42,058 nt of DNA from a virus: IMG/VR virus record IMGVR_UViG_3300045988_049432. One strand, given 5' to 3'. Shown here piece after piece: positions 5,554 to 38,105 of the stretch. The translations under genes were made by a program, and so were the position numbers. The notes under the pieces were generated by a model. The model saw only the letters and a program-made list of their open reading frames with translations, had not been told where the DNA came from and did no database searches. Position 1 is the first letter of the stretch; the number at the start of each line of letters is the position of its first letter.

Positions 5554-7461
5554 ATGATATTCTACGATTTTGAGGTTTTTGAAAAGGATTGGCTTGCTGT
5601 ATTCATTGATGTGACGAAGAAGAAAGAACACGTGATAATAAATAGCCCTGATAAGCTAAAAGCCTTATATGAAGCAAATAGAAAAGATATATGGGTAGGA
5701 TTTAACAACCGTCACTACGATCAGTACATCATGAAAGGTATTCTGCTTGGTATGAATTCTAAAAAGATCAATGACTGGATTATCGTTGACAATAAAGAAG
5801 GTTGGCAATATTCAAGAGCATTCAATAAATTACCCATGATCAACTATGATGTAATGCCAAGCAACGATGAAACCATGAAAACAGTCGGATTGAAAACAAT
5901 GGAAGGTTTTCTTGGTTCAAACATTAAAGAAACAGATGTTGATTTCCGTATCAAAAGGAAACTGACACAGGAAGAAATAGAACAGACGGTTAAATACTGT
6001 AGGCATGACGTAGAACAGACAATCAAGGTATTTCTTGAAAAGGTTAGTGAGTTCAATGCAGTTCATGGAATTATACAGGCATTTCCAAAAGAAACTTCAC
6101 TGTATGACATTGGAGATAGTGAAGCCCGGATAACAGCAAAGGTTCTTGGGTGTTCAAAAACTCATTTTGGTGATGAATTTGATTTCTTCTTTCTGCCATG
6201 CCTGAAATTGAAAAAATATAAATATGTTCAGGAATGGTTTGCAGAGAAAAGAAAAGAAGCCCTTGAAATGGGGTTACAGGACTTTGACAAGAAAGATAAA
6301 AAGACTTGGTATAAGTCACAGAACTTTGAAACGATTGTTGCAGGAATACCGCACACATTTGGTTTTGGCGGTCTGCATGGTGCATCTGATAAGCCGATAC
6401 ATCGGAAAGGTCAGATTCTTCATGTAGACGTAAATAATTACTATCCGTCAATGCTGATTGCATGGGGACTTGTAACAAGGGCAGCAACCAATAACAACTT
6501 CAAACTGGTGTATGACACAAGAAAAGCTATGAAAAAGAAACAGGTTGCAGCATCTAAAGCCGGAAGAAAGGCAGAAGCAAAGCAATGGAAAAAAGCACAG
6601 TTGCCGTATAAGAAGATGCTGAATGCACTTTCAGGGGCAATGAAAGATGAAACCAATGCTGCATACGATCCACGTAATAACAACTGTATGTGTATCAACG
6701 GTCAGTTGATGTTGCTTGATCTGATTGAGCATTTGGAAGTTGTGCCGGGACTTGAACTGATTCAGTCAAATACTGATGGTCTGATCATTTGGATTCCTGA
6801 CACTGATGAAGCATTTGAAATGGTTGATGATATTTGTTGGGAGTGGGAACAGCGTTGTTCAACTGAACAATGTTCAATATTACTTGAACTTGACAATATA
6901 TCAGAAATCTATCAGAAGGACGTAAACAATTACCTTTGGATTGGTACTGATGGCGGTGTTGAAAGAATTGGTGCTTACGTCAAAGAACTTTCTGCTATTG
7001 ATAATGACTTACCAATACTGAATAAAGCGTTGGTTGACTACATGGTGAAAAAGATACCTGTTGAACAGACAATCAATCAGTGTGATGACTTGATTATGTT
7101 CCAAAAAATAGTGAAGCTGTCAAACAATTATAACTGGGTTGAGCATGAACAGGGAACTGGTCAGATCATTAAGACAACAAAACACCGGGACGGTACACGA
7201 ACAGAAGTGTGGTCATATCCTACCACACAAAAATATACTTATAAATCTTATCGTGTGTTTGCTTCCAATCGTGTTACAGACGGTAGGTTGTTAAGACGTA
7301 AGGTTGTAAAACCAAAGGGTGAAAAATTTGGAAATACACCTGATCACAGTTTCATTTATAACGATTCTGTAATCGGGGTTAAAGTACCACAGGAATTAGA
7401 TAAGCAGTGGTACATAGATTTAGCAAGAAAAAGACTGAAACAATTTGGTATTGCAGCATAA
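5554..7461 (+). CDS. Family-B-type DNA polymerase with N-terminal 3'-5' exonuclease
   Basis: Exo I YDFEVF, Exo II NNRHYDQYI, Exo III YCRHDVEQT. Polymerase motif A DVNNYYPSML, motif B KKMLNALSGAM, motif C SNTDGLII. Confidence 0.75.
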   Translation: MIFYDFEVFEKDWLAVFIDVTKKKEHVIINSPDKLKALYEANRKDIWVGFNNRHYDQYIMKGILLGMNSKKINDWIIVDNKEGWQYSRAFNKLPMINYDVMPSNDETMKTVGLKTMEGFLGSNIKETDVDFRIKRKLTQEEIEQTVKYCRHDVEQTIKVFLEKVSEFNAVHGIIQAFPKETSLYDIGDSEARITAKVLGCSKTHFGDEFDFFFLPCLKLKKYKYVQEWFAEKRKEALEMGLQDFDKKDKKTWYKSQNFETIVAGIPHTFGFGGLHGASDKPIHRKGQILHVDVNNYYPSMLIAWGLVTRAATNNNFKLVYDTRKAMKKKQVAASKAGRKAEAKQWKKAQLPYKKMLNALSGAMKDETNAAYDPRNNNCMCINGQLMLLDLIEHLEVVPGLELIQSNTDGLIIWIPDTDEAFEMVDDICWEWEQRCSTEQCSILLELDNISEIYQKDVNNYLWIGTDGGVERIGAYVKELSAIDNDLPILNKALVDYMVKKIPVEQTINQCDDLIMFQKIVKLSNNYNWVEHEQGTGQIIKTTKHRDGTRTEVWSYPTTQKYTYKSYRVFASNRVTDGRLLRRKVVKPKGEKFGNTPDHSFIYNDSVIGVKVPQELDKQWYIDLARKRLKQFGIAA

Positions 7462-29872: not shown

Positions 29873-30112
29873 ATGAATGAAAATAATATGCCTTTGTCAC
29901 TTATGATGGAGAACGCAAAAGGTGCAATGACGGATGCATTTAATCAGATCGTTGAGCAGTCAAACCTTCCGGCTTATTTGTTGGAAGGTATCGTTGCTGA
30001 TCTTCTGTCTGAAATCCGAAAACAGAAAAACCTTGAATTGGTTTCTGATATGAACAGAATGAAACAGACTGAACACAGTGAACAGGAAGAAAAGAAAGAA
30101 GGTGCTGAATAA
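29873..30112 (+). CDS. Small acidic helical hypothetical protein
   Basis: 79-aa ORF between Tal and the fibre gene. Confidence 0.5.
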   Translation: MNENNMPLSLMMENAKGAMTDAFNQIVEQSNLPAYLLEGIVADLLSEIRKQKNLELVSDMNRMKQTEHSEQEEKKEGAE

Positions 30113-32253
30113 TGGCAAACATACAGCCTTATATTGATCAGATTTTAAATGCAGTATATGGTGAAGAGGTACGATCGTCTATTGTCAATGCACTTGAAAA
30201 AGTAAATGATGATAATAACTCTTACGCTGATCTGAAAAAAGAAGTAATTGCTGCAAAGGATGCGGTTGATAAAGATGTTGATGCAGTACAGCAGAAACTT
30301 AATGCTGCAAGTACTGCATTAACTAATTTGCAAAATGCTACAAGTGCAGCTAATACAGCGAAAACCAATTTGCAGAACGCTACGAATACAGCCAATACCG
30401 CAAAATCAAATCTGACCAGTGCAACAAGTACAGCGAATACCGCAAAAAGTAATGTTGAAGCAGCAACTAATGCTGCAAAAACAGCAATCAGCAATGCCAA
30501 TGCAGCAAAGACAAATCTTGAAAAAGTAATTACAAGTGCAACAACCACACAGAGTAATTTACAGGGTGTAATTGATAATGCAAATCAGATTAAGGGTCAG
30601 TTGGATAGTTCCAACGCTACAGCGGTAACATCAAAGAAAAATCTTGATTCTGCAATTTCTGATGCAAGTGTAGCAAAAAGTCAGCTTCAGGAAGTAATTA
30701 ACAGTGCAAGTTCAGTTAAAACTTCATTGTCTAATGTCATAAGTACAGCCAATACCGCAAAGTCAAACCTTGATGCATCTGTTGCAACAGCTAATAATGT
30801 ATTACAGTCACTAAGTGCGGAAAACGCAAGTGCTGCAAGTAATATTGATGAACTGAAAAGTGAAAACTTCAACAGTCAAGAAATTCTTTCAGGTGTGGCA
30901 GATATTCGTGCCTATTTGGGTATCACTGCTGATGATATTGTTGGTATTCAGGTCGATTACAAAAATAAAACATTCAAAAGACTTGCCGGAGCAGCCAACC
31001 TTACAAAAGGTTCTGATTTTGACAAGTTCACAATGTTTGGTGGTCGTAAACGCTGTAATGTTGCTGATGATGGTTCTATAGTAGCATGGTACGGTGATGC
31101 AGATTACAAAGAAGATGGTTCAATGGGGCAGGTAATGGTATATCAGCCAAAGTTCTATTATTTGGTGTGTCCTGTAGAGTATGACCCTATTGATACAGGC
31201 ATTGGTTACCACTTAAGAAAGGCAAACTATTATGTGTCAGAAAAGCCACGTGCAGGTTTCAGACTTCACCCGGCATTCTACGATGCATCAGGAAATGAAA
31301 TTGATTACTTCCTTACAAGTGCTTACGAAGGTAGTATTTACGATGCATCAGCAAGTGCATATCTGTTGAATGATGAACAGGTTATGAACACTGGTGAAGA
31401 TAAGTTCTCATCAATCGCAGGTGCAAGACCTGCATCCGGTTCTTCACAGAACCTTACAAGACCGAATATTGAAGCAATGGCACAGAATCGTGGAACAAAC
31501 TGGCATGGTGATCTGATTAAACAGGTATCTGCTGAACAGATGCTTATGATCATTGAAATGGGTATGATGAACTTACAGACCGCTATTGCACAGGGTGTTG
31601 TTTCCTTACCTTGGACTACAGGAAGTGACACAACAAGTTCATATGCAGCTGCAACCGGAAGTACAGCAAGCCTTGGAAATGGTACAGGTAGGGCAGAGAA
31701 AACAACCACTTATGAGGGTGGTGTCGCTAAAGAGTACACGGTTGACGGTAAGACTTCTGTATGTTGGAGAGGTAAAGAAAACTTTTGGGGCAACATTTGG
31801 AAATTTGTCTATGGTATCAATATTTGGGGCAATAGAAAAATGGGCGGTGGTCAGCCTTATATTTGTTCTGATTTCAGTTTTGCAGAATCAAAGAACAGCG
31901 GAAACTATGAACCTGCCGGCTTCACAGTAACAAACGCAAACGGTTATATTTCAGCAATGGGGTATTCAACAGCTTGCGACTGGTTATTTATTGCGTCAGA
32001 ATGCCTTGGTAACAGTTCATTACCTGTTGGTGATTACACATATATCACTGTCAACTTGAACGGTTACCGTATCGCTCGATTGGGCGGTAGTTGGGATTAT
32101 GGCGGTAGTGCGGCCGGTTTCTCTTGGGCTCTGGATAGCGGTGTTGGTTATCGTAATCGGAATATCGGGGGTCGCTTGGTATATATTCCAACACGTGATT
32201 CTGCTACTTATACCGCTGCAATCGAAGCATGGAAGCAGAAAATGGCAGCTTAA
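30112..32253 (+). CDS. Tail fibre / receptor-binding protein; DGR target with a C-terminal C-type-lectin-fold variable region
   Basis: The N-terminus has ANTAK(S/T)NL-type Ala/Thr/Asn repeats. The C-terminus has FWGNIWKFVYG and GGSWDYGGSAAGFSWALDSGVGYRNRNIGGRL, which contains the VR. Confidence 0.85.
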   Translation: MANIQPYIDQILNAVYGEEVRSSIVNALEKVNDDNNSYADLKKEVIAAKDAVDKDVDAVQQKLNAASTALTNLQNATSAANTAKTNLQNATNTANTAKSNLTSATSTANTAKSNVEAATNAAKTAISNANAAKTNLEKVITSATTTQSNLQGVIDNANQIKGQLDSSNATAVTSKKNLDSAISDASVAKSQLQEVINSASSVKTSLSNVISTANTAKSNLDASVATANNVLQSLSAENASAASNIDELKSENFNSQEILSGVADIRAYLGITADDIVGIQVDYKNKTFKRLAGAANLTKGSDFDKFTMFGGRKRCNVADDGSIVAWYGDADYKEDGSMGQVMVYQPKFYYLVCPVEYDPIDTGIGYHLRKANYYVSEKPRAGFRLHPAFYDASGNEIDYFLTSAYEGSIYDASASAYLLNDEQVMNTGEDKFSSIAGARPASGSSQNLTRPNIEAMAQNRGTNWHGDLIKQVSAEQMLMIIEMGMMNLQTAIAQGVVSLPWTTGSDTTSSYAAATGSTASLGNGTGRAEKTTTYEGGVAKEYTVDGKTSVCWRGKENFWGNIWKFVYGINIWGNRKMGGGQPYICSDFSFAESKNSGNYEPAGFTVTNANGYISAMGYSTACDWLFIASECLGNSSLPVGDYTYITVNLNGYRIARLGGSWDYGGSAAGFSWALDSGVGYRNRNIGGRLVYIPTRDSATYTAAIEAWKQKMAA
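32071..32182 (+). repeat. DGR variable repeat (VR)
   Basis: 112 nt align without gaps to 32338-32449. There are 23 mismatches, all at TR adenines. Confidence 0.9.
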
Positions 32254-32337
32254 AATGTAACTTGTAAACTTGATTCATTAGGTTGAAAGAACTTCTGATA
32301 TTTTCGTTATTTACCTGTAGCGGAAACCATTAAAAAA

Positions 32338-32449
32338 ATCACTCAATTAGGCAGTAATTGGAATAATGGCAGTAATGCAGCCAGTTTCTATTGGAATCTG
32401 AATAACAGTGTTGGTAATCGTAATCGGAATATCAGGGGTCACTTAATAA
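32338..32449 (+). repeat. DGR template repeat (TR)
   Basis: Non-coding copy of the VR, rich in AAT/AAC codon equivalents (..GSNWNNGSNAASFYWNLNNSVGNRNRN..). It lies 205 nt upstream of the RT. Confidence 0.9.
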
Positions 32450-32655
32450 TTGCAAAACATAGCCGGGTGGAAACATCCGGCTATTTCTATAAACTGTATA
32501 GTTCTTTCAACCATGCCACTAGGCAAAAAAGAAAAATAGACGGTGCAGACAACCCAACCGGGAATACCGTCTTACTTACGAACAATAAGGAAAGGTCAAC
32601 CGTATTTACCGGGCAGTAATGCCGACTGAAATTCGGACAATGCAAATACCAAGGA

Positions 32656-33786
32656 ATGAAACGCTATGATCACTTATATGAAAAGATTCATGACCTTGAA
32701 AATTTAAGAAAAGCACACCAACACGCAAAGAAAGGAAAAGGTTGGTACAGAGAAGTTCAGGAGATTGACAAAGAACCTGACAAGTACCTGAAACAGATTC
32801 AGGAAATGCTTATCAACCACACTTACAAAACATCTGATTATGAGGTGTTTTATAAACAGGACGGTAAGAAGTTAAGGAAGATTTACAAACTGCCTTATTT
32901 CCCTGACAGAATTTGTCAGTGGGCTATCTTACAGGTCATTGAACCCTGTATCATCAATAACTTAACCGCTGATACCTATTCAGCAATACCAAACAGAGGT
33001 ATACACAAGGGTCTGACAAAATTGCAAACAGCAATGTGGAATGACCAGGAAGAATGCAAGTATTGTTTAAAACTGGACGCAAGACATTATTATCAGTCAA
33101 TCAACCACGATCTTCTGAAAGAGAAGTATTCAAGAATGTTCAATGATGATGAACTATTGTGGTTATTGAATGAAATCATTGACAGCATTGAAACAGCAGA
33201 GATCGAGGACTTATCAGCAATCTATCTGTTGGAAGAAGATATTGACCCTGAAACTGGTATACCGATAGGAAATTACTTATCACAGTATTCAGGCAACTAT
33301 TATTTTTCAAGTTTTGATCACTGGATAAAAGAACAGAAGCACGTTAAATACTACTTCCGTTATATGGACGATATAGTTATTTTTGGCAAGACGAAAGAAG
33401 AACTGATTGCCTTGAAGAAAGAGATTGATATTTATTTCAGGAATGAACTGAAATTGAATATAAAAGGAAACTGGCAGGTGTTCCCATCTTACATAAGAGG
33501 TGTTGACTTCTTAGGTTACAGAACATTTTACAAGTATACATTACTTAGAAAAAGCACCTGTTTGGAAATGGAAAAGAAAATGACCGCTATCAGGAACAAA
33601 GTAGAAGCCGGGAACATGATGAACTATTCAGAGTGGTGTTCAATCAATTCTTACAAAGGTTGGTTGAAATATGCTGATACTTTCCGGCTGTATCAAAAGT
33701 ATGTTGTACCGCTGTTACCTTATGCGGATGATTATTATATACGCAACATAAAACCAAACACAAAGAAAGGATTGAATGCAGCATGA
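32656..33786 (+). CDS. DGR reverse transcriptase
   Basis: FPDRICQWA, the DGR-type motif 4 PIGNYLSQ, the catalytic RYMDDIVIF, then FLGY. Confidence 0.9.
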   Translation: MKRYDHLYEKIHDLENLRKAHQHAKKGKGWYREVQEIDKEPDKYLKQIQEMLINHTYKTSDYEVFYKQDGKKLRKIYKLPYFPDRICQWAILQVIEPCIINNLTADTYSAIPNRGIHKGLTKLQTAMWNDQEECKYCLKLDARHYYQSINHDLLKEKYSRMFNDDELLWLLNEIIDSIETAEIEDLSAIYLLEEDIDPETGIPIGNYLSQYSGNYYFSSFDHWIKEQKHVKYYFRYMDDIVIFGKTKEELIALKKEIDIYFRNELKLNIKGNWQVFPSYIRGVDFLGYRTFYKYTLLRKSTCLEMEKKMTAIRNKVEAGNMMNYSEWCSINSYKGWLKYADTFRLYQKYVVPLLPYADDYYIRNIKPNTKKGLNAA

Positions 33787-34049
33787 TTGATTATGGAAAA
33801 CAGAAAAGCACTGTCAGACCGGAAGAACTGGAACTGACAGAAACAAAAGTATTTGTCAGTTCCAATATCACAGAGGTGAACGAAGATGAAACTGACGGAC
33901 AGCCGGGATTTACCGGATATGAATTTGACCTTATCGAGTATGACAAGGACGAATACATTAAAATTCAGGCAGAAAAGAATGCTGATCTTGAAAATGAAAT
34001 TACACAGGCACAGATTGCTATGTGTGAAATCTATGAAATGATGGGATAA
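33783..34049 (+). CDS. Small acidic hypothetical protein
   Basis: ATGA overlap with the RT stop. 88 aa, strongly acidic. Confidence 0.5.
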   Translation: MIDYGKQKSTVRPEELELTETKVFVSSNITEVNEDETDGQPGFTGYEFDLIEYDKDEYIKIQAEKNADLENEITQAQIAMCEIYEMMG

Positions 34050-34453: not shown

Positions 34454-34768
34454 TTGGAACAATTTATTTATTCAACGTACACGATTGTTTTACCAATCAT
34501 TGTCACTGCTCTTATGGGCTATGTGGTTTGGTTGCTGAAAAATCAGAAGAAAGACAGGGACGCAAATAGTAAAGGTACAATGCTTTTACTTAGGGTTCAA
34601 CTTATTGAATATCACGATAAGTATATGCGATTAGGTGACATTCCATCATACGCTTATGAAAATTTTATGGAAATGTATGATGCTTACCACGCTTTAGGTG
34701 GTAATGGGATGATCACAAAAATGATGCATGAAATTGAAGAATTACATTTAAAAAAGAAAGAGGTATAA
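34454..34768 (+). CDS. Membrane protein of the lysis cassette (N-terminal TM); holin accessory?
   Basis: 104 aa with a TTG start. One N-terminal TM segment followed by a helical domain. Confidence 0.45.
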   Translation: MEQFIYSTYTIVLPIIVTALMGYVVWLLKNQKKDRDANSKGTMLLLRVQLIEYHDKYMRLGDIPSYAYENFMEMYDAYHALGGNGMITKMMHEIEELHLKKKEV

Positions 34769-36812: not shown

Positions 36813-38087
36813 TTATGACGTTTTTGCTTGTGTGATTTTTTCAAAGAGATCAACAGAACGTTCAGCCATTTTTTCAGTATCATGCACGTAGGTCTGCAAT
36901 GTAGTTTCTATATTGGTGTGTCCTAATCGTGTCTGAACATTCTTAACATCAGCACCGGATTCAATCAACAGTGTTGCGTGTGTATGCCTTAAGCTGTGAT
37001 AATCAAAGGCAAGATGCATTTCATGGTGTATAACCCTACTGCAATACTTAAATGAATCAGTGGAAGTATACTGACCGTTTTCATCAATACACACCAACCT
37101 GATACGCTGTAGTGGACTTTCAACACATTTTTGAATTGGTACAACCCTGATCATGTCATTACCCTTTTCATCAGTTTCAATCTTTTTAACATGAATCGTG
37201 TAATATTCACCATACTTCATTTCATTCCTAAGTTGTTCAGCTTTTTCCTGTTTCAATGCCTGATATAGTGTTTCACCAAAAGGGACTTCACGAATGGAAG
37301 TAAAGGTTTTTGGTGTAGTAAAGTACCAAGATGAACGCTGTTCTTTCTTACCTTTCTTTTCAACAACCTTTCTTACATCTGCCCCAAAGTTACGTTTTAC
37401 AATCTGCTTATTTACAGATATTTTTCTTTTATCAAAATCAATATCATCCCAAGTAAGACCAAAGGTTTCTGATATTCGTAAGCCTGTATAAAATCCGATC
37501 ATTAAAGGTATATAGTACCGGGTGTTTTGAAATCTGTCACGAATTTTACACCATTCATCTAATGTCAGTACAATTCGTTCACGTGGTTTTCTTTCAACCT
37601 TTGGAAATTTCACATACTGCATAGGGTTTGACTGTAAATAGTGCATTGGTTCAACTGCATAATTCAGTGCAGCACTGAATACAGATAAAATACCAACTAA
37701 ATGACTTTTTGAATTACCGTTCATTTTTAATTCAACAGCGTACTCCTGTAATACTGCCGGAGTGATTGCCTTTAATCTATACATACCAAATTTTGGAATT
37801 AAATGCCCTTGAATGATTCTTAAATACCCTACTTGGGTGTTATATTTCAGATTGGTCTTACAGTACAGATCAAACCACTGATTCAGGTAATCAGCAACCG
37901 TTATTTCTGTCGGTTCAAATACAGTCCCGGCATTATTGTATTCATTCATAGCAGCAGTCAATGCCTGTTCAGCTTCTTTCTTGGTTCTGAATCCACCCTT
38001 TTCTTTTTTCTTCCTTTTACCGTCAATTTTTCCAAGGTCAAAATAATATGACCATGTTGTACCTCTTTTTCTTACTCCACCTTGCAT
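36813..38087 (-). CDS. int: Tyrosine integrase
   Basis: The C-terminal catalytic region has GLRISE, HSLRHTHATLL and LGHTNIETTLQTYVH. The ATG at 38087 lies 8 nt after GAAAGGAAG. The GTG at 38096 in the track is less likely. Confidence 0.9.
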   Translation of the reverse strand: MQGGVRKRGTTWSYYFDLGKIDGKRKKKEKGGFRTKKEAEQALTAAMNEYNNAGTVFEPTEITVADYLNQWFDLYCKTNLKYNTQVGYLRIIQGHLIPKFGMYRLKAITPAVLQEYAVELKMNGNSKSHLVGILSVFSAALNYAVEPMHYLQSNPMQYVKFPKVERKPRERIVLTLDEWCKIRDRFQNTRYYIPLMIGFYTGLRISETFGLTWDDIDFDKRKISVNKQIVKRNFGADVRKVVEKKGKKEQRSSWYFTTPKTFTSIREVPFGETLYQALKQEKAEQLRNEMKYGEYYTIHVKKIETDEKGNDMIRVVPIQKCVESPLQRIRLVCIDENGQYTSTDSFKYCSRVIHHEMHLAFDYHSLRHTHATLLIESGADVKNVQTRLGHTNIETTLQTYVHDTEKMAERSVDLFEKITQAKTS

Positions 38088-38105
38088 AAATAGCACTTCC
38101 TTTCA

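Follow-up and report, generated by a model that had tools for sequence, protein, structure and literature searches.

A 42,058-nt stretch of viral DNA, IMG/VR record IMGVR_UViG_3300045988_049432 (the whole of which we call the window), carries a tail gene, a second copy of part of that gene's 3' end and a reverse transcriptase (RT) gene side by side. The locus raises the question of whether this is a diversity-generating retroelement (DGR) that rewrites the tip of the tail protein, as an earlier note made from the sequence alone had proposed, and, if so, whether the element works. Our answer is that the window very probably holds a functional DGR of the class named Architecture A, in a temperate siphovirus-like prophage of Coprococcus comes or a related member of the Lachnospiraceae. 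It is not a new kind of element but a recently active DGR of an already known architecture. All features of the cassette and of its target gene given below lie on the plus strand.

Transfer of sequence from template to variable region

Direct alignment of the variable region (VR, 32071-32182) with the template region (TR, 32338-32449) extended over 112 nt without a gap, at an offset of 267 nt, and revealed 23 mismatches, 23 of 23 at adenines of the TR (18 A to G, 3 A to T and 2 A to C). The TR has 38 adenines among its 112 bases, and the hypergeometric probability that 23 random mismatches would all fall on them is 3.3e-14. The pair was also recovered independently by a repeat search of the window, and a search of both strands of the whole window found no third copy, whether an extra or a remote VR. 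The VR is in frame and occupies codons 654-691 of a 713-aa open reading frame (ORF) at 30112-32253, the TR is intergenic, and the RT ORF starts 206 nt past the TR end. Re-alignment thus confirmed the coordinates and the gapless match reported in the earlier note, and a rigorous alignment found no mismatch at any base other than A. Extension of the TR in the 5' direction, into the run of adenines at 32331-32337, would add mismatches that all hit A, but we rejected it because VR 32064-32070 is conserved among relatives despite the A-run in the TR there. This conservation supports 32071 as the 5' boundary.

The diversified part of the VR covers 32071-32164 (codons 654-685), as delimited by mismatches to the TR at A sites only, by nucleotide diversity (pi) and by protein entropy. 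The templating part of the TR, at 32338-32431, contains 11 AAY codons (Y, C or T) and is conserved among relatives. The randomised codons number 13 (11 AAY, plus CAA, TAT and ATC), substitution of A in the TR cannot create a stop codon, and the theoretical repertoire of the TR is 7e14 to 4e17 peptides.

We compared the window with 80 related IMG/VR loci (L001-L080), whose RTs are 65-100% identical to that of the window and 58 of which hold both repeats. TR adenines account for 1384 of the 1423 mismatches between TR and VR in these 58 loci. Some contigs form pairs with only 0-2 differences across the ~1270 nt of target sequence upstream of the VR, and the members of such a pair differ at 15-21 of the 32 A sites in the VR and at 0-1 of its 74 remaining sites; two of these pairs, L002/L007 and L022/L024, have 0 differences upstream (about 1270 nt), yet differ at 19-21 of the 32 A sites and at 0 of the 74 non-A sites. 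The window itself and its nearest relative, L001, whose RT is 100% identical, show 2 differences in 1271 nt upstream, 16 of 32 at A sites and 1 of 74 at non-A sites. Among the relatives, pi in the VR is 0.42 at A sites versus 0.039 at non-A sites, and pi in the TR is 0.07 at A sites and 0.038 at other sites. At the protein level, the 114 full-length proteins that share at least 97% identity with that of the window contain 112 distinct VR peptides, with an entropy of up to 3.0 bits that is confined to 13 residues within aa 656-685. The contig and protein comparisons therefore agree with the expectation of the earlier note that the VR should vary at A-templated positions and nowhere else, and the variation there is extreme.

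The TR of the window also carries a private G-to-C change at 32381 that is mirrored at VR 32114, while all relatives have G at both positions, and clade-specific non-A variants of the TR are likewise mirrored in their own VRs. The mirroring from 32381 to 32114 amounts to a marker-transfer experiment done by nature. Taken together, these data show, at the level of contigs, that TR sequence has recently been transferred to the VR, with diversification specific to adenines across the population.

Following the definition in PMC5758913, by which the initiation of mutagenic homing (IMH) sequence has a G/C-rich start and lies 3' of the last variable adenine, we expect the IMH/IMH* pair at VR 32165-32182 and TR 32432-32449. 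The last variable adenine is repeat position 94, and the 18-nt candidate block follows directly. The candidate IMH, TCGGGGGTCGCTTGGTAT, is G/C-rich at its start, and its differences from the TR are the same in relatives; the candidate IMH*, TCAGGGGTCACTTAATAA, is its counterpart in the TR and has fixed A-for-G/T differences. With VR/TR variants in brackets the block reads TC(G/A)GGGGTC(G/A)CTT(GG/AA)TA(T/A), and it is the sole stretch with differences fixed in all relatives: the five fixed differences, at repeat positions 97, 104, 108, 109 and 112, recur unchanged in about 52-54 relatives. The earlier note had taken the sequence CGTAATCGGAATATC for an invariant block and, together with GGGGTC, had placed the IMH there. 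GGGGTC does lie within the candidate block, but CGTAATCGGAATATC is unmutated in the window copy only. It is not an IMH because its adenines, at positions 85, 86, 91, 92 and 94, are hypervariable in relatives, and the fixed TR/VR differences begin only at VR 32165.

Several observations weigh against a working element. Consensus scans found no sigma-70-like promoter or terminator around the TR. Pfam, NCBIfam and PHROGs searches found no homolog of Avd in the ORFs flanking the cassette, no Avd family was among the 25 families listed of the 46 in a window-wide Pfam screen, and Avd is essential in the DGR of Bordetella phage BPP-1. A hairpin or inverted repeat 3' of the VR is unsupported, the DNA fold of 32160-32270 having z=0.70; an inverted repeat 3' of the IMH is present in just 34% of DGRs (PMC5758913). 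Activity was inferred from contigs of different samples, so the window copy could have gone silent recently. Finally, 5-6 of the 58 related loci have a TR with VR-like substitutions, so that members of this DGR family do decay.

The TRs of this last kind carry VR-like A-to-N changes over part of the repeat, between TR-type flanks (L018 3681-3792, L035 3671-3782, L048 2097-2208, L064 3723-3834, L070 3673-3784 and L007 3683-3794). The VR-like patch equals the contig's own VR in L070 and differs from it in L018. Such TRs could have arisen through gene conversion or self-homing, either of which would kill the element, or through chimeric assembly, and simple chimeras are argued against because the variable sites are closer together than typical assembler k-mers.

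The rival explanation that survives best is a decayed DGR, in which past activity left the VR/TR pair and the RT ORF behind and the window copy has ceased to diversify. It draws on the loci with corrupted TRs just listed, on the between-contig, not within-sample, nature of the activity evidence, and on the cultured Clostridium_AP phages CS266P1-4 (OP172775, OP172776, OP172777, OP172778), which retain a 93-100% match to the window TR. In CS266P3 (L081, OP172777.1 1-5354) there are a VR at 19-130, a TR at 257-368 and a stub with the conserved hairpin of the RNA motif RT-17, described below; the RT is absent from its usual place after the TR, as is the 88-aa ORF that follows the RT in the window, and the next gene is a homolog of window 34454-34768. 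This locus is an RT-less DGR remnant. The window copy, by contrast, has an intact RT ORF with its catalytic motifs, and its TR keeps 38 of 38 adenines and the family consensus but for one change, which has already been copied into the VR. Moreover, L001, so similar in RT and upstream sequence, already differs from it at half of the A sites. We therefore consider decay of the window copy quite improbable and a functional DGR the better reading.

Much less probable still, to the point of being negligible, is an origin of the VR diversity without reverse transcription, through recombination or positively selected point mutations. Moderate variation, probably recombinational, does occur in the N-terminal repeats of the target (aa 55-169), but the VR varies only where the TR has A, its non-A sites are no less conserved than the remainder of the gene (pi 0.039 versus 0.088), the TR is constant, and non-A changes in the TR co-occur in the VR.

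The reverse transcriptase and the class of the cassette

The RT gene (32656-33786) is an intact ORF of 376 aa that matches RVT_1 of Pfam at 1e-16 and phrog_1423 of PHROGs with 388 bits (2e-115). The motifs reported in the earlier note, IGNYLSQ and YMDD in the RT and FWGNIWKF in the target, are all present, the first within IPIGNYLSQY. DGR RTs have the motif (I/L/V)GxxxSQ where group II and retron RTs have QGxxxSP. The best PDB match of the RT, over nearly its whole length, is 8ub7_A (E 8.7e-27, 97 bits), whereas the group II RT match is at 8e-11; 8ub7_A was identified through tblastn as 100% identical to brt of BPP-1.

One might suppose instead an RT of a group II intron, a retron or a defence system (DRT/UG) beside a coincidental duplication of a gene end, since the top NCBIfam model is a group II RT/maturase (TIGR04416, 96.8 bits) and PADLOC gives matches to RT and RT_UG17 at 100-110 bits, but the PADLOC scores are at the generic RT level, the NCBIfam scores are far under their cut-offs (300 for group II; 31.9 versus 235 for retron St85; 55.9 versus 200 for Drt3a; 36.2 versus 390 for Drt2), phrog_1423 scores 388 bits, the closest PDB relative, BPP-1 bRT, leads in E-value by 16 orders of magnitude, an Rfam search of 31800-33000 in evalue mode found no intron or retron RNA, and an ordinary duplication cannot confine to the adenines of one copy all 23 mismatches of the window, or 1384 of the 1423 in relatives, so that this vanishingly improbable reading is already refuted by the A-specific pattern.

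A stronger argument than RT scores for the placement of the RT comes from A-specific TR/VR pairs beside related RTs. We fetched 80 GTDB species genomes with an RT alignment, in which the RTs are 41-99% identical to that of the window and the hosts include Bacillota, Bacteroidota, Desulfobacterota and the candidate phyla radiation (CPR), among others. A de novo search found an A-specific VR-TR-RT arrangement, in the same order, in about 70 of the 80 loci. These results support the placement of the window RT with DGR RTs, not with group II, retron or Drt enzymes. The DGR reading of the repeat pattern is thereby borne out at each point where the earlier note had seen that it might fail: the mismatches fall on A, the VR is heterogeneous and the RT does not side with retron or group II enzymes.

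The order of the cassette is target-TR-RT, with no Avd. We file it under Architecture A, not B, because the Pfam, NCBIfam and PHROGs searches found no Avd beside the cassette. Architecture A accounts for 29% of DGRs, and the DGRs of Lineage 3 are without avd (PMC5758913). The window cassette resembles the Architecture A / Lineage 3 elements of Wu et al. 2018 (PMC5758913) in its target-TR-RT order and in having no avd, HRDC or MSL gene, and the same authors proposed Avd-independent retrohoming for avd-less DGRs (PMC5758913).

The host is identified by an RT 99% identical to that of the window in Coprococcus comes MSK.16.63 and a target protein 97% identical in Coprococcus sp. The window also encodes an integrase, a terminase, a portal protein and other phage genes. 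The integrase found by the Pfam screen is of the tyrosine type, and its likely gene is the 427-aa ORF at 36813-38096 on the minus strand. Elsewhere in the prophage there are two C-5 cytosine DNA methyltransferases (PF00145, best E 1e-55) and, at 414-1763, an SNF2-related helicase.

The target protein, the spacer RNA and the RT-coupled ORF

The 713-aa target (30112-32253) is probably a tail fibre or receptor-binding protein. Its match in PHROGs is phrog_5302, 'tail protein' (2e-83), and it follows a 955-aa ORF of tape-measure size, a 231-aa ORF and an 886-aa tail protein, with a holin and an endolysin downstream. The term tail fibre in the earlier note fits this gene position and the PHROG label, and it is from these two that the name derives. 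The N-terminal third of the protein is an alanine/asparagine-rich helical shaft with weak coiled-coil-type matches (SMC, TPR_MLP1_2). It contains 42-nt (14-aa) periodic repeats at 30303-30800 (repeat families D1, D2 and D4), spaced at 42 nt and at multiples of 21 nt (63, 84 and 126). Shaft residues 55-169 are moderately variable among otherwise nearly identical proteins; this variability probably comes from repeat recombination unrelated to the DGR.

The VR is displayed by a C-terminal module of 435 aa (30946-32253). An AlphaFold2 (AF2) model of the module built on 52 diverse homologs had a predicted local distance difference test score (pLDDT) of 95.5 and a predicted TM-score (pTM) of 0.95. 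The top PDB match of the model in Foldseek was the DGR variable protein TaqVP of Thermus aquaticus (5vf4; E 1.5e-9, probability 1.0), followed by Mtd (1yu0-4), likewise a DGR variable protein, formylglycine-generating enzyme (FGE), PvdO, TvpA and EgtB. The module is thus predicted with high confidence to adopt the C-type-lectin/FGE fold, in agreement with the earlier note, which had recognised the fold from a motif. The class of the module was resolved by structure prediction alone; searches at the sequence level (Pfam, NCBIfam, PDB phmmer and a profile of the 52 homologs) gave no match; in particular, the target has no Pfam FGE-sulfatase or DUF1566 match. The family of the C-terminal module comprises 1971 clusters at 50% identity, and the motif ENxWGNIWK is nearly invariant across it. 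TaqVP, Mtd and TvpA are alike in structure, 5vf4 being the best match at TM 0.47-0.53, and have the VR at the C-terminal end as well, whereas identity is only 11-16% and the window module is larger (435 aa) and fused to the long helical shaft.

The TR is separated from the RT by a structured spacer RNA of 206 nt (32450-32655), a divergent relative of Rfam RT-17 (RF03020). Its helices pair 32462-69 with 32474-81, 32503-08 with 32590-95, 32514-17 with 32522-25, 32538-45 with 32565-72, 32553-55 with 32560-62, 32600-07 with 32629-36 and 32612-14 with 32621-23. In 26 distinct relatives, 93.9% of cells are paired versus 30-51% with slid partners; in 10 pairs both partners carry compensatory changes, and none of 500 shuffles attains the values seen. 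The match of the window spacer to RT-17, at 32509-32552, scores 29.3 bits, under the gathering score of 40.4, and 51 model positions are absent from the window copy. The homologous spacers of five relatives score 40.9-57.4 bits, above the gathering score (L147 4914-5000, L107 4879-4981, L125 4907-5002, L158 4912-4995 and L111 4899-4985). RT-17 is an orphan motif near RT genes, without an assigned function in Rfam or in PMC5737381. Because these homologous spacers pass the gathering score, RT-17 is the RNA that this DGR lineage has as its TR-RT spacer, the analogue of RT-10 in BPP-1. Like the motif of Weinberg et al. 2017 (PMC5737381), the window spacer lies directly 5' of an RT gene and contains the invariant hairpin UGCC-NNNN-GGCA, at 32514-32525, and the GCAGACAA block. 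The window spacer presumably forms part of the DGR RNA.

The RT is followed directly by an acidic ORF of 88 aa (33783-34049), with an isoelectric point (pI) of about 4.1 and a start that overlaps the stop codon of the RT. In 79 of the 80 IMG/VR loci and in 36 of the 36 Firmicutes-type GTDB loci with downstream DNA, which span many host families, a homolog occupies the same position, and in L100 and L101 it is fused in frame to the RT. An AF2 model, run on a comparatively shallow alignment, had a pLDDT of 88.7 and shows a beta sheet plus a long helix. The model has no significant fold match in the PDB and is neither a four-helix bundle nor Avd-like, and the ORF belongs to no named family in Pfam, NCBIfam, PHROGs or PADLOC. 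Synteny and the fusions make the 88-aa protein a candidate accessory protein of Avd-less DGRs. A possible parallel is CH1 of Wu et al. 2018, an acidic protein of small size (160-169 aa, pI 4.7) that is restricted to avd-less cassettes (PMC5758913); compared by description only, both proteins are acidic and belong to avd-less cassettes, and the window ORF is about half the size.

Bacteroidota relatives of this RT lineage have other small conserved ORFs in the cassette (L137 4414-4749, L144 4390-4755, L153 4416-4754 and L158 4413-4754; L130-L133, about 5950-6240). One, of ~112 aa, lies between VR and TR, and the RT is followed directly by an ORF that is either basic, with about 96-100 aa, or acidic, with 117-135 aa.

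Adenine context, mechanism and meaning

The fate of a TR adenine depends on its 3' neighbour, as seen in the window together with the IMG/VR loci and the GTDB loci (L083-L162). In both data sets, 91-98% of the adenines that precede a G (CAG, TAG) correspond to G in the VR, and hardly any to C or T; for CAG, with 171 sites, the share of G is 98%. An adenine before A or T is unchanged in 35-52% of cases and is otherwise spread over all bases. The bias from AG to GG holds across DGRs whose RTs are only 41-46% identical, and where TRs of relatives are G/A polymorphic at AG sites, the VR always has G. Selection for glycine is not the whole explanation because the bias persists at third codon positions that are four-fold degenerate (before G, 49 G and 3 A; otherwise A5/C2/G2/T1; Fisher P=2e-6), which rules out selection at the protein level alone. 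A model of slippage or dislocation was also rejected, as the 3' neighbour is not copied in AT or AC contexts.

With BPP-1 bRT in E. coli, misincorporation depends on the 3' neighbour, dC insertion is dominant in most contexts, dG insertion is 0.08% at NAG, and mean misincorporation is about 30% (PMC12875486). The natural AG-to-GG outcome is stronger than this context effect of bRT, and we found no description of such a near-deterministic outcome in the DGR literature that we examined. A tentative proposal, which we hold to be possible but rather doubtful, is that the Avd-less lineage, unlike BPP-1, uses a ribonucleoprotein of the RT, the coupled ~88-aa acidic protein and the RT-17 RNA, in which mutagenesis is context-gated so that only A(A/T/C) is randomised.

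By analogy with BPP-1, the RT would bind an RNA spanning the TR (32338-32449) and the RT-17-like spacer (32450-32655). cDNA synthesis would start near the 3' end of the TR, with C, G and U copied faithfully and misincorporation opposite adenine, and the cDNA would replace VR 32071-32164 of the tail-fibre gene. Directionality would be set by the difference between IMH and IMH* (32165-32182 versus 32432-32449). In this way 13 codons on the ligand-binding face of the C-type-lectin fold would be randomised, giving up to about 1e15-1e17 peptides without stops, and the phage would presumably change its receptor specificity.

The likeness to the BPP-1 element (mtd-avd-TR-brt) is considerable. Both have a phage tail-fibre target with a C-terminal VR in a C-type-lectin fold, a TR beside the RT, adenine-specific TR-to-VR differences, an AAY-rich TR and a G/C-rich start of the IMH (in the window, of the candidate IMH), and bRT is the closest solved structure to the window RT, although the match is moderate. 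The window differs in having neither avd nor an inverted repeat 3' of the candidate IMH, in using AAT rather than AAC codons, in a spacer RNA that is RT-17-like and not RT-10 (PMC5737381), and in the acidic 88-aa ORF coupled to the RT. DGRs of gut phages (crAss-like and others) also target tail proteins and have RTs 34-44% identical to that of the window, but belong to another phage lineage and host phylum. Among the deposited phages of INPHARED, no RT is more than 48.5% identical to that of the window.

The locus thus adds one more well-documented phage DGR that retargets a tail fibre, with unusually clear population evidence, from an abundant family of human-gut Lachnospiraceae prophages with no close relative among deposited phage genomes. 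The Avd-less class makes up about a third of DGRs, and how it works without Avd has been a question since 2018; the conserved structured spacer RNA and the RT-coupled acidic protein, sometimes fused to the RT, are testable candidates for the answer. The orphan Rfam motif RT-17 gains a DGR context. If the context-gated reading were true, AG in the TR would hard-code a glycine scaffold, and the AG-to-GG regularity, if intrinsic to the RT, would bear on the design of synthetic DGR templates.

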